A DNA stretch of 63,873 nucleotides, the filler included, from Octopus bimaculoides (Eukaryota), in the NCBI RefSeq assembly GCF_001194135.2. It is 7 parts of 5 records of this genome, joined end to end, with 100 filler letters (N's around TTAATTAATTAA, not from the genome) between each part and the next. Parts side by side here need not be neighbours in the genome. Positions count along the whole stretch, not along the records: positions 1 to 6,178 come from NC_068986.1; positions 6,279 to 20,909 come from NC_069000.1; positions 21,010 to 31,020 come from NC_068982.1; positions 31,121 to 45,756 come from NC_068982.1; positions 45,857 to 51,993 come from NC_068987.1; positions 52,094 to 57,728 come from NC_068986.1; positions 57,829 to 63,873 come from NC_068990.1. One strand, 5' to 3'. Below the pieces are notes generated by a model. It ran no database searches and was not told where the DNA came from. It was given only the letters and a program-made list of their open reading frames with translations. Made by a program: the position numbers and the translations under genes. Below, one piece after another: positions 3,094 to 63,688 of this stretch. The stretch's first letter is position 1; each line of letters begins with the position of its first letter.

Positions 3094-3167
3094 ACCTAGT
3101 ACTCTAGTTTCGAACTTTTCAGAATATGTTTGTTATCGAAAAACTGATTGTTCTTCGTCGGCTAGGT
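3094..3167 (-). ncRNA. Type I hammerhead motif, U4C core variant
   Basis: ACCTAG-CCGACGA-A-GAAC-(loop)-GTTC-GAAAC-TAGA-GTA-CTAGGT; same repeat family as 25525-25895. Confidence 0.7.
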
Positions 3168-3444
3168 CTACCGAAATGACTAAATTTAAAGTATCCGCTA
3201 CATCAATGCCTGTATACTCGGTCAATAGCCCCAGCAATAAACAGAATCGAGATCAGTGAAAAAATTTTATATAAAAATTATAAATATTATTACAATACAA
3301 TATTATTACATACATACATTATGTATGTATGTATTATTTTCCAGCAAAATAAAGCTCCGTAAAGGTTCTGTTTGTGACAGGGGCTGTTGGCTGATTATAA
3401 CAGGCATTGATGTAGCAGATATTTTAAATTCAGTCTTTTCGGTA

Positions 3445-3518
3445 GAGTAGCCAACGAAGACCAATCAGTTTTACGACAACAAACATATTCTGAAAAGTCC
3501 GAAACTCGAGTATATGGG
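3445..3518 (+). ncRNA. Decayed hammerhead motif (inverted partner of 3094-3167)
   Basis: CCAACGA-A-GAC-(loop)-GTC-C-GAAAC-TCGA-GTA; helix I is mismatched. Confidence 0.5.
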
Positions 3519-3770
3519 TGTCCATTTCTCTGGCGTTCTTCCTAGAGGTAAGACGAAAAATGTTTATGTTCGCCGCCCGCACACATCTTTGCCTCTATGC
3601 ATTCAGTGAAGCTTTACCTAGCGTCGAACGGTTATCGACTGCTATTTCCAGCAAAAATTGGTACCTTGTTGCGTCAATATTTCCTATTTATAATTCTACC
3701 TATATGGTGCTTTATTTCGTTGGAAAATAATATTATTGTATTGTAATAATATTTATAATCTTTATAGATC

Positions 3771-3915
3771 CAGGAGTGGCTGTGTGGTAAGAAGCTTGGT
3801 TCCGGGTTTAGTCCCACTAGATGGCACCTAGGGCAAGTGTCTCCTACTATAGCCTCGGGTTGACCAAATCCTTATGAGTGAATTTGGTAGACGGAAACTA
3901 AAAGAACCCCGTCGT
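3771..3915 (+). mobile_element. SINE family A copy
   Basis: Aligns with 57492-57656 and has a short internal deletion. Confidence 0.8.
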
Positions 3916-4066
3916 GTATATATATATATATATTATTAATAAATCTGAGGGTAGCAAAAAAATTTCAGAAATTTTATTTTGCTACCAGTGGTCTAGCGAG
4001 GAGAAAAAAATTAGTCAATAGACTATATATTATACATTTAAAATACAGTGTACATTTAAACACATC

Positions 4067-4273
4067 AGAGATGTCCATAATAGGACATCTAACCCGCTAG
4101 AAGGAGCAGTCAAAACTCCACACCACAATTAGAGATAATTTCGAAAGGGAATGAAAAATAAAAGGATGGTAAATGTTTTTATTTTTCATTCCCTTTCGAA
4201 ATTATCCCTAATTGTGGTGTGGAGTTTTGACTGCTCCTTCTAGCGGGTTAGATGTCCTATTATGGACATCTCT
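4067..4273. repeat. Foldback/MITE-like element with 97-bp inverted arms
   Basis: 4067-4163 versus 4177-4273 show one mismatch and a 13-nt loop; the right arm ends at a gap. Confidence 0.8.
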
Positions 4274-60600: not shown

Positions 60601-61105
60601 AGAAAAAAACCTACGAAATTAAAATGGATATTTTACAGTATCTTGTAAATAAATGAAGCTTAAAGATATCTTTCTTTCACGCACACAATATACACAGAAA
60701 CACTGTATGCACACAAAAAAGCATACATACAAACAATCCATAAACACACAGAAACAACACAAATACAAATCACATGCATACACACAAATACAAAATACAC
60801 TCACACACATATACATACACACATACATACCCACCATGACACTATCTAACTGATAGTTCATTGCACCACACCAAAATATTTTCTCCAGTCTAACAATACT
60901 TATTAATAGTCAGTCTATAGGTGCTGATACACCTAAATCTATCTCTCTTTACTAAGATTTCACTCTTGATTTCTACAACATACAGCTTCATTAACTTTCT
61001 TATCATACTGCAATTATTAAGTAAAAATAAGCTATCATACTCTAATCTCTTGGTTCCACTCACCCTTTCAGCTGACAAGTCCTTTTCTTGTCTTGCAAGG
61101 TCACA

Positions 61106-62205
61106 GGTGCTGGGGCCATGTAAAAGAAAAGCACCTGTGCTGGTGTCACATGTGCCAGTGCCATGTATAAAGCACTATGCTGGTGCCATATATAAAGCAC
61201 TGGTGCTGGTATCACATACAAAGCGCTGGTGCTGGTGAAACATATAAAGCACCTGTGCTGGCACCACATATTATGCACCTGTGCTGGTGCCACATATAAA
61301 GCACCTGTACTGGTGCCACATATTAGGCACCTGTAGTACCACATATAAAGCACCTGTGCTGGTGTCACATATTAGGCACCTGTAGTACCACATATAAAGC
61401 ACCTGTGCTGGTGCCACATACAAAGTGCTGGTGCAACATATAAAGCACCTGTGCTGGTGCAACATATATAAAGCACCTGTGCTGGTGCCACATATAAAGC
61501 ACCTGTGCTGGTGCCACATATAAAGCACCTGCGCTGGTTCCACATATAAAGCACCTGTGCTGGTTCCACATATAAAGCACTTGTACTGGTGTCACATATA
61601 AAGCACCTGCACTGGTGTCACATATAAAGCACCTGTGCTGGTGCCACATACAAAGCACTGGTGCTGGTACAACATATAAAGCACCTGTGCTGGTGCCACA
61701 TATTAAGCACCTGTGCTGGTGCCACATATAAAGCACCTGTACTGGTGCAACATATAAAGCACCTGCACTGGTGTCACATATAAAGCACCTGTACTGGTGC
61801 CACATATAAAGCACCTGTGCTGGTGCCACATATAAAGCACCTGTACTGGTGCCACATATAAAGCACTTGTACTGGTGTCACATATTAAGCACCTGTGGTA
61901 CCACATATTAAGCACCTGTGCTGGTGCCACATATAAAGCACCTATGCTGGTGCCACAAATAAAGCACCAGAGCTGGCACCAAATATAAAGCATCAATGCT
62001 GGTGCCACATAAAAATGCACCAGTGCTGATACTATGCAAAAAGAACCTGTGTTGGCACCACGTATAGAGCACCTGTGCTGGTGTCACATAAAAAGCACTA
62101 GTAACGGTACTATGCAAAAAGTACTGGTTCTGCTGTCATACATAAAACACCCATGCTAGTGCCACGTATAAAGCACCTGTGTTGGTGGATAATAAAAAAG
62201 CACCC
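61106..62205 (+). repeat. 26-bp minisatellite, about 42 units, consensus GCACCTGTGCTGGTGCCACATATAAA
   Basis: Head-to-tail units with no spacers, decaying at both ends. Confidence 0.95.
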
Positions 62206-62375
62206 TGTACATTCTGTAAAGTGGTTGATGTTAGGAAGGGCATCCAGCCATAGAAACCATGTCAGAACAGATGACCAGAGCCTGGTGCAGCTCTCCGGCT
62301 TGCCAACTCCTGTCAAACCGTCCAACCCATGCCAGCATGGAAACAGACATTAAATGACGATGATGATGATAATGA
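62206..62375 (+). mobile_element. RTE 3' tail copy directly after the 26-bp minisatellite
   Basis: Matches 13880-14036 and ends in (GAT)n. Confidence 0.8.
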
Positions 62376-62579
62376 TGAACTAGTAAAATGACGTGTATAT
62401 TTGGTAAACATTTTGAGAGATGACACAATCTGTATTCATAGTCTCTGCCTCATGATGGCTAAACATAACACAAAATGAGTTAATCATCAGCAGTTAATTA
62501 ATACACATGACTCTCACAGAATGGAGTCCCAATTGATTCATTCACTGAGATATAAAAATGATTCTTTTACCTTCTTCTT

Positions 62580-62955
62580 TTACTTGTTTTAATCAGACTG
62601 TGGCCATGCTGGAGCATCACATTGAAAAGTTTTTAGGTGAATGAATCAACACCAGTATTTGTTTTTTAAAGCCTGGTACTTATTCTATCAGTCTCTTTCA
62701 CTGAACTGTTAAATTACTGGGACATCAACACACCAATACTGTTAGTGAAGCCAAGATGAGGGACAATACAGTCACAAAGAAACACACAGATATATATAAT
62801 GGGTTTCTTTCAGTTTCCATTTACCAAACCCACTCACAAGGCTTTGGTCAGCTTGAGGCTATAGCACAAGACACTTGCTCAAGGCACCATGCAGTGGGAA
62901 CAAACTCAGAACCAAGTGGTCAGGAATCAAGCTTCTTATCACACATGCCTGCACC
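62580..62955 (-). mobile_element. Adjacent SINE copies (family D 62580-62790; family A 62805-62955)
   Basis: TTTTACTTG...GGCCATGCTGGAGCA is also at 39650-39740; the second part matches the family A reverse complement. Confidence 0.65.
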
Positions 62956-63651
62956 TATTGGCTATGATTCACAGACATTCACTTCCACCTCCCTTCCTCT
63001 TTTATTACTTCACTTTCAACAATCTTCATTCTCCTGAACCTCTTCACTACATACTGTGCTGTCCTAAGAAATGTGCACGATGGGCAGTTGGCCAGGGTCC
63101 TCAGGGCCAATTCTAATCTATGTATTGTTGTCAATAAATACTACAATACCCAAGGCACTCTTTTGCCTGGGGGCCTATATAATATTGCAAAGGCAATCTT
63201 GGTTACATACATTTTCCATCAAAGCCCACAAAACCCATTTGACTTCTTTTGTCATAATTACTGTATTCTCACCCTCCAGGCTCTGATACTAGACACATCA
63301 ACCAGAACTCTCTCTCCCCACAAGATGTGCATCCTTCAGAAATCCTACCCTACCCCACCACCACCACTATTGCTGCCTACATTTCTTTCGTGCAGACACG
63401 AACCTCAATGTTTTCAAGCTCAGTATCAATCTCGTCCAATACAGAACTGAAAGGACTGCAAAATCATAACATTAGACACTTCAATACTGAAGGTGATGGT
63501 GAAGAAGAAGAAGGAGGAGGAGATGAAGCAGAAGAAGAAACAAAAGAAGAAGATCATCTTATCATTATTATTCAAATGTCCACTTTTCCACGACCGTTGA
63601 CTAGACACTATTCAATTTTTTTTCTCCGTGTTTTTCTCCTTGTCTCCGTAT

Positions 63652-63688
63652 TCTTTCTGTTGAAGAGCATAGCTCGAAACGTCAAAGA
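63652..63688 (+). ncRNA. Minimal type I hammerhead motif with one core substitution
   Basis: TCTTT-CTGTTGA-A-GAGC-ATA-GCTC-GAAAC-GTC-AAAGA: perfect helices I and II; A6 replaced by U. Confidence 0.65.

Follow-up and report, generated by a model that had tools for sequence, protein, structure and literature searches.

A predicted SGC-type hammerhead in a dispersed octopus repeat family and its neighbours with palindromic helix III

Background

Do the hammerhead-like motifs carried by octopus repeats all depend on pairing with a second RNA molecule, or may some of them cut on their own? The question is raised by a 63,873-nt stretch of Octopus bimaculoides DNA (assembly GCF_001194135.2; hereafter the window, meaning the whole stretch analysed), which is AT-rich animal DNA, full of microsatellites and interrupted by N gaps. 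An earlier note had read in it about ten hammerhead-like motifs from several unrelated repeats, with covarying stems and an always self-complementary helix III, and had assigned them to dimer-dependent Penelope-like elements. In this work we present a computational analysis of these motifs. Judging from descriptor scans and copy variation, we consider it fairly probable that remains of several retroelement families of the octopus, likely Penelope-like or mobilised by Penelope, lie in the window, including one (family B) predicted to carry at 5876-5933 a monomer-cutting hammerhead of the SGC permutation, with its blocks in the order cleavage site (S), GAAA (G) and CUGAUGA (C).

Hammerheads with a palindromic helix III in animal repeats are a kind already known since 2014. 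Minimal type I hammerheads of Penelope-like elements were described in thousands per metazoan genome, marked by an unpaired base between positions 9 and 10.1, a G10.1-C11.1 pair, a palindromic helix III and mostly single truncated copies; pairs on opposite strands, separated by 100-700 bp, also occur (Cervera and de la Pena 2014, PMC4209133). Their cleavage as dimers is reported in a review (PMC6765202, citing Lunse et al. 2017). Octopus repeat annotation lists Penelope-like families as abundant (PMC13282606, PMC8967140); the main texts of both papers do not contain the words "ribozyme" or "hammerhead". Non-circular permutations of the fold were first reported in 2023 and only from environmental RNA and DNA: according to the text of Eckert et al. 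(PMC10085705), type SGC was defined, its cleavage was validated and all of RefSeq was searched, with none found in the genomes of known organisms; SGC/HRIMA-1 is known there only from metatranscriptomes, next to hairpin ribozymes.

Methods

Several descriptors were scanned over the window. The scored type I descriptor was compared with 30 block-dinucleotide shuffles of the window. A second descriptor, free of any demand on helix III, allowed at most one core mismatch and required at least 5 (helix I) and at least 4 (helix II) Watson-Crick pairs, with 60 shuffles as control. The six-permutation descriptor covered all six block orders, and its overlap rule leaves out palindromic type I motifs. 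Five decayed type I motifs or so (at 3451, 22575, 30444, 35918 and 57446) were read by eye.

Reads and contigs came from public sequencing runs, some labelled with the same species and some from a second organism (B); 8 of 24 runs were compared at 80% likeness, for family B only. The table of family B variants (20 rows, 4 runs) used a threshold of at least 7%. Summed contig word depth is not a copy number and was taken only to mean "thousands".

Results and discussion

A single SGC match at 5876-5933

The six-permutation descriptor gave one match in the window, in SGC order at 5876-5933(+), with 7 Watson-Crick pairs in helix I, 3 pairs in helix II and 4 Watson-Crick pairs in helix III. All 11 conserved core bases are intact (CUGANGA, GAAA, U16.1 and an H17 that is not G). 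Block S (5876-5887) comprises the helix III 3' arm GCGT, U16.1 at 5879, C17 at 5880 and a helix I arm at 5881-5887; block G (5893-5902) holds a helix II arm (5893-5895), GAAA (5896-5899) and the helix III 5' arm reaching to 5902; block C (5916-5933) consists of the second helix I arm (5916-5922), CTGATGA (5923-5929), an extra A (5930) and the second helix II arm (5931-5933). Helix III is thus formed by 5876-5879 with 5899-5902 and helix I by 5881-5887 with 5916-5922, the latter counting 5 bp family-wide because 5916-5917 vary. Following the unpaired A5930, helix II is made of 5893-5895 and 5931-5933 (U-A, U-G, C-G). Past an internal loop, helix III is extended by an outer stem (5864-5915(+)), in which 5864-5871 and 5908-5915 form 8 Watson-Crick pairs. 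The predicted cut falls after GUC, at C5880. The surrounding element, of approximately 235 nt (5832-6065(+)), starts sharply in read depth at 5832, has a T-rich 3' part and ends in a TA-rich microsatellite.

Other block assignments at this site were considered and rejected. A type I (CGS) reading fails on its sole downstream GAAA (5985), which most copies skip by joints leading from 5960-62 to 6020-29 (depth about 1e4 vs 2e5), and a type II (GSC) reading would need a cleavage-site block between G and C able to form helix I, of which there is none.

In the relaxed form of the published type of SGC descriptor, allowing any extra base and a 3-bp helix III, the window gave one match as against none in 1000 shuffles. 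The published-like descriptor did not match at the family B site, which it misses because of the extra A and the short helix III: in the descriptors of PMC10085705, CUGAUGAG or CUGAUGAUG is demanded together with a helix III of at least 4 bp beyond A15.1-U16.1. The six-permutation descriptor returned 18 chance matches of any order in 100 shuffles, 3 of them SGC and none with both helix I of at least 6 and helix III of at least 4 pairs.

An ATG stands directly behind the helix II arm (5935-5955), and no part of the family is shared more widely than the 20 nt after it, with depth up to 1.5e6; this region is possibly the start of an open reading frame (ORF) or a protein-binding signal. Elsewhere in the window, at 40289-40335(+) beside a microsatellite, GAAAC is followed 30 nt on by CTGATGA, with no well-pairing cleavage-site block, probably by chance.

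Helix III of family B is not a palindrome

The earlier note had counted ACGCGT (5874-5879) of this site among its helix III palindromes. Helix III here pairs instead with the separate GAAAC block, and ACGCGT is palindromic only through C5875, a position which is T in 84-99% of the compared reads or contig depth. Since 5875 is mostly T, helix III of the family is not palindromic. Being intramolecular, it is predicted to make a dimer unnecessary at this site. The dimer-type Penelope-like interpretation is thus supported in part, through the published marks borne by the type I motifs described below, and gives way here to an SGC reading.

The same variation bears on the proposal that 5874-5880 is a decayed palindromic type I motif, with GAAAC and CUGAUGA left over from other tandem units. 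Penelope-like elements typically carry tandem or partial-tandem units, duplicated units complement each other automatically, and the window copy does have ACGCGT. The palindrome, however, is no family trait, CUGANGA-like cores upstream of the site were found neither in the window nor in upstream loose ends, most copies are without the downstream GAAA, and the S-C and outer-stem pairs are preserved by double changes. We consider this explanation very improbable, and it is already largely refuted by the read and contig variation; a related idea, that of a duplicated palindrome, was rejected on the T at 5875 in other copies.

Copy number, subfamilies and variation

The SGC reading of family B was further examined in other copies. 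A second, decayed copy in the window (2714-2888(-)) is about 70% alike, keeps the S-G-C order, has A at H17 and a shortened S-to-G linker, lies with both ends in microsatellites and also scores as SGC. In the contigs of one run (X3) summed word depth was 43 in the unique flank, jumped at 5832 and reached 2.4-2.9e5 over blocks S and G and 1.2e6 over block C, and contig depth in a second run (X2) was similar. Family B is likely a very high-copy family, with thousands of copies in the octopus genome.

Not one of the 11 core bases carried a variant of at least 7%, and substitutions at that level were likewise missing from 5876-5879, 5881-5889, 5892-5899, 5901-5902 and 5921-5933. Substitutions and indels cluster in the internal loop (5873-5875 and 5903-5907). 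H17 (5880) shows C>T in 7-11% of DNA depth, 5900 C>T in 34% of RNA reads and about 1% of DNA depth, and 5920 C>T in 6-34%; an A inserted behind 5932 extends the A run and leaves helix II unaffected.

Paired changes were seen in two stems. Pair 1 of helix I is C-G in copy 1 and U-A in copy 2, and 19 of the 20 cells of the two aligned copies pair, as against 40-53% when they are slid. In the outer stem, the partner changes T5864C and A5915G occur at matching rates in three RNA runs (84/87%, 76/83% and 80/80%). A single contig of organism B carries both changes; its blocks are all intact, and none of its 8 differences touches the core or helices II-III. Loose ends in another run (X12; 10 contigs) represent a second subfamily with A at H17 and the longer S block form of the copy 2 subfamily; their 6-nt helix I arm is complementary to the arm of copy 2, and if the two are read together, a second helix I double change (pair 4) would follow. 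The double changes hence comprise one seen directly in helix I, one that a single contig shows in the outer stem and one by inference, with none in helices II and III.

The carrier itself invites a different interpretation, namely that family B, and perhaps families A and C described below, are non-LTR retrozymes, amplified through circular RNAs with the ribozyme cutting monomers out of multimers. Such a carrier is compatible with the SGC fold, from which it differs in nothing but the vehicle. Family B resembles animal non-LTR retrozymes in being a short non-coding hammerhead repeat of likely Penelope origin (PMC7229834; bioRxiv 10.64898/2026.07.22.740005): it is about 235 nt long, has a sharp 5' edge at 5832 and yielded no ORF, and animal retrozymes are derived from Penelope pseudo-LTRs in the preprint just cited. 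Retrozymes, on the other hand, are described as tandem arrays with type I motifs and circular RNAs (PMC7229834), whereas the octopus copies are dispersed and single, and circles of family B were not seen. Self-BLAST of the window found dispersed or inverted copies only, with no tandem 150-450 nt units each bearing a hammerhead, and back-joints for family B occurred neither among the 15 of 26 joints listed nor in a second comparison. We rate the retrozyme interpretation as unlikely.

Points that weigh against an SGC ribozyme

Several observations speak against taking 5876-5933 as a selected, working ribozyme. All descriptors and chance tests for family B were designed post hoc, with the site already seen; the three SGC matches in 100 shuffles, although weak, did arise, and a loose score of 26.5 was reached in 1 of 100 shuffles. 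Helix II (C-G, U-G, U-A) is unstable alone, at +1.8 kcal/mol, and the nested minimum-energy fold, a method which cannot represent pseudoknots, forms helix I but not II or III, with an unremarkable z of -1.18. Upstream, GAAGAG (5857-5862(+)) is complementary to 5890-5895, with 6 of 6 pairs if 5891 is T as in about 99% of other copies, and could sequester the helix II arm. The family B alignment has two sequences only, and its pairing was equalled in 263 of 500 shuffles, so that covariation is not significant. The rates of T5864C and A5915G match less in DNA contigs (52/33%, 43/31% and 46/35%). The 80% likeness filter by itself accounts for part of the invariance of the core, and 5935-5950, which lies beyond the fold, does not vary either. 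In three raw RNA runs, whose libraries appear unstranded and fragmented, read ends did not pile up at 5880/5881 and depth was flat over the site. Inspection of the window copy by eye did not reveal the extra helix that in HRIMA-1 joins the far sides of stems I and II, and our searches, specified below, detected no Penelope reverse transcriptase (RT) or GIY-YIG domain adjoining any motif.

These points lend themselves to the explanation that the S-G-C fold, though real and conserved, has lost its catalytic activity or keeps it only under certain conditions, being held off by the 5' GAAGAG and serving as a structural signal for a mobilising reverse transcriptase or for RNA stability. Helix II has 3 bp as against 6 bp of its competitor, RNA reads cross the predicted cut, and thousands of copies retain the sequence upstream of it, which means that uncut RNA was copied; moreover, Penelope insertion proceeds in vitro without hammerhead cleavage (PMC11167929). 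A purely structural role, though, would not require the catalytic bases to be kept, and all 11 of them are kept together with a cleavable H17 (C, U or A, with no G reaching 7%) across subfamilies and in the second species. We find this explanation improbable, if slightly less so than the retrozyme one. The missing read ends fit an active hammerhead as well, because the same null was reported for the lizard Penelope hammerhead, which needs protein, is dispensable for insertion in vitro and leaves no ends in RNA-seq (PMC11167929).

Taking both sides together, we hold with good confidence that the SGC fold of family B is real and selected. That it is also catalytically active is favoured only slightly by the model.

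Family B and published SGC hammerheads

Family B and type SGC as described in PMC10085705 are alike in the S-G-C order, the full core and a helix I of about 5 bp. The linkers are also in range: between the helix I and helix II arms family B has 5-7 nt (0-8 in the SGC descriptor), and between G and C 13 nt (0-15). Unlike the published examples, family B has the extra A, a helix III of 3 bp with an internal loop and an outer stem of 8-10 bp, and its carrier is a chromosomal animal repeat. The base inserted after CUGAUGA is A in family B but U or none in HRIMA-1. From its block arrangement, the family is filed as a putative SGC permutation and not as HRIMA-1. With the Penelope minimal hammerheads it shares the extra A and G10.1-C11.1, but it differs from them in its block order, which is other than type I, and in lacking a palindromic helix III. 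Rfam returned no match for family B. Pattern scans with the G and C blocks produced 27 metagenome and at least 120 viral loci, with the hammerhead architecture in 0 of 27 and 0 of the 120 listed. In the literature, taken without subscription papers, Repbase entries and preprint supplements, we found no permuted hammerhead in an animal genome and none in octopus repeats.

Type I motifs: one complete copy among relics

Every helix pair and palindrome quoted in the earlier note is present in the sequence. Type I hammerhead-like motifs are enriched over chance, yet of the "about ten" only one is complete, the rest being altered or decayed. The strict type I descriptor found 3 loci in the window. 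The scored descriptor returned 5 matches at a score of at least 24 (mean 0.07 per shuffle) and 9 at a score of at least 20 (0.7 per shuffle), hence the shuffled control proposed in the earlier note did not produce similar numbers. The match at 29917-29962 was judged false, as it falls in a 33-nt tandem repeat within the coding relic of a non-LTR element, and a very relaxed scan was discarded as swamped by chance matches. With helix III left free, 25704-25778(-), 3093-3168(-) and 63652-63688(+) pass as against no match in 60 shuffles. If only helix I and a perfect core are demanded, 2 loci qualify, compared with 0.05 per shuffle. In 4 of the 4 loci selected regardless of helix III, this helix is palindromic or one pair off. 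We take both the enrichment and the palindrome rule to be real, because the helix-III-free scan beats the shuffles and all four loci conform; self-complementarity of helix III thus stands for these type I loci. Rfam gave, among 150 of its 190 rows, a single hammerhead match (HH9, 25.7 bits, E 0.043) below the gathering score, the others being miRNA models driven by microsatellites.

In total there is 1 complete type I motif; 2 others differ at one core position each (U4C, A6U), 1 lacks helix II and about 5 are decayed. The complete hammerhead is 25704-25778(-) only, with perfect core and all stems; all stems are kept in only 3 copies. Most type I copies in the window are likely dead. Predicted energies of the helix III self-duplex (kcal/mol) are -11.4 for the copy at 25704, -9.0 at 22236, -3.6 at 3093 and -1.7 at 63652.

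The motifs at 3093, 3451 and 25704 had been counted among "several unrelated repeats", but self-BLAST places them in a single family (A), 74-87% alike. The copy at 25704-25778(-) has a helix I of 7 bp, a helix II of 5 bp and the palindrome ACCTAGGT. The copy at 3093-3168(-) has core change U4C, a helix I of 7 bp, a helix II of 4 bp and the near-palindrome ACTAGAGT, and its inverted partner (3451-3512(+)) is decayed, with 2 core changes, a broken helix I and the palindrome ACTCGAGT. The claim of covarying stems fares poorly in this family: in the alignment, the 25704 copy owes its helix I 3' arm to 15 nt inserted with respect to the other two copies, and the helix II pairing registers differ, so the apparent covariation is partly a re-pairing of non-homologous columns. 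The inverted pair spans 2928-3684, with 2928-3246 and 3366-3684 being 87% alike; it resembles inverted 5'-truncated Penelope-like insertions (PMC4209133; bioRxiv 10.1101/2021.04.23.441226), and its opposite-strand hammerheads, about 290 nt apart, lie within the Penelope-like range (PMC4209133).

Family C is represented by a minimal type I motif (63652-63688(+)) with core change A6U, an extra A, a helix I of 5 bp, a helix II of 4 bp and helix III ACGT, in an element ending at (AT)n near 63780. Family D (22236-22291(-)) has a perfect core, a helix I of 6 bp and the 10-nt palindrome ATTGATCAAT, with no helix II at the core, and adjoins a fold-back at 22153-22248. The decayed motifs are found at 30444-30473(-) (U4C, ACTCTGAGT, helices I and II weak), 35918-35970(-) (2 core changes and ACGATCGT, without the 5' arm of helix I), 22575-22606(+) (weak, with a core deletion and ACTCGGGT) and 57446-57473(+) (doubtful). 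Two further decayed type I motifs are possible on inspection by eye: one at 609-691(+), beyond the range covered by the earlier note, with perfect core, ACATATGT and a helix I of 3 bp, and one in an intron of DRC2 at 53291-53323(-), with perfect core, a helix II of 4 bp and GAAA broken.

G10.1-C11.1 with the unpaired base between 9 and 10.1 is present at 3093 and 63652, ambiguous in register at 25704 and absent at 22236. Families A, C and D share with the Penelope minimal hammerheads their order, palindromic helix III, high heterogeneity and mostly single truncated copies; they differ in that no flanking RT or GIY-YIG ORF was found, and family A differs also in its long loop II of about 33 nt. 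By analogy, these families and the fragments would be ordinary minimal type I hammerheads with palindromic helix III, predicted to cleave only as dimers. No Penelope ORF appeared in 123 frames of the window, in 15 stop-masked frames, in a homology search of two flanks or in Atlas, the copies being short and decayed; because no such ORF was found beside the motifs, the link of type I motifs to Penelope rests on RNA features. TA-type microsatellites adjoin 5 of the 6 element 3' ends examined.

The U4C change, a known weak natural variant (PMC3088659), occurs in family A (3155-3161(-), 3451-3457(+)) and in an apparently unrelated motif (30467-30473(-)). At this site T>C creates rather than decays a CpG, and U4C may therefore be a lineage variant. 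At 25780-25785(-), 1 nt before helix I of the complete hammerhead, half of its helix III palindrome is repeated; this half could compete for helix III and has no counterpart in the two remaining copies of family A. Common to all three copies are a pyrimidine tract, AG and a splice-donor-like GTAAG site about 45-60 nt past the hammerhead (25654-25661(-) for the complete one), and in the decayed copy an ATG-started open frame of about 40 codons, for which no homologue was found, comes after GTAAG.

Proposed mechanism and its meaning

In the fold that we propose for family B, a loop of about 19 nt, in which one arm each of helices I and II lies, would be closed by helix III and the outer stem. 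The CUGAUGA strand farther downstream would pair into this closed loop, giving a double pseudoknot as in type SGC. Because helix III joins two separate, non-palindromic arms, no second RNA would be needed, and the element is predicted to cut itself as a single molecule after C5880. Cleavage may free the 5' end of the element RNA from read-through transcripts, possibly only with the help of protein. The upstream GAAGAG could, speculatively, stack on the 3-bp helix II or displace it and so gate cleavage. The extra A and the shared layout, with the motif 100-190 nt ahead of an end that abuts a microsatellite, suggest descent from Penelope minimal hammerheads, probably through rearrangement of tandem units with the extra A at 9.1 retained.

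Extended to its full form, the model leans narrowly towards a retroelement family, present in octopus genomes in thousands to tens of thousands of copies, whose SGC hammerhead is active and would be the first in the chromosome of a known organism, evolved from dimer-dependent Penelope hammerheads into a monomer-competent double pseudoknot whose helix II is extended or gated by a 5' strand. If true, family B would bring the SGC fold into a named animal genome and offer natural variants by the thousand on which covariation and structure could be studied. One extra base would have hidden the fold from published descriptors, and other animal genomes may hold more; the gap in known genomes would be explained, because the published-like descriptor misses the family B site. 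The rewiring of a dimer-dependent into a monomeric ribozyme would become testable, as would the purpose of Penelope-type hammerheads.

Other features of the window

Exons of DRC2/CCDC65 (Pfam NYD-SP28) lie at 52046-53874(-), the one at 52349-52618(-) being 98% identical to Octopus bimaculoides DRC2; the decayed hammerhead-like motif at 53291-53323 falls in its intron. The six N gaps (6179-6278, 20910-21009, 31021-31120, 45757-45856, 51994-52093 and 57729-57828) share one layout of 44 N, TTAATTAATTAA and 44 N, which is assembly filler and non-genomic.

Fold-back palindromes with arms 75-95% alike were noticed at 4067-4273, 22153-22248, 30750-30993 and 55669-55715, two of the four near hammerhead-like motifs and possibly inverted insertions. 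A minisatellite array of about 40 units of 26 nt occupies 61107-62210. Two dispersed SINE-like families (short interspersed elements), with copies 73-94% alike, are present in five copies each, the first at 1-92, 3772-3913, 18069-18155, 57498-57654 and 62801-62945 and the second at 8752-8873, 19567-19721, 20041-20254, 26121-26225 and 47299-47432; ARAGORN reported no tRNA gene in the window. Relics of other elements stand at 10628-13182(+), 6279-6645(-), 21342-21972(+), 29841-30158(+), 24411-24662(+), 34981-35346(+) and 45956-46576(-), and include an RTE-like LINE (long interspersed element; endonuclease and RT, Pfam), two non-LTR C-terminal fragments, two mariner-type pieces and one hAT-type transposase piece. 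The two non-LTR fragments, one of which ends in (TAA)n, look Dong/R4-like.

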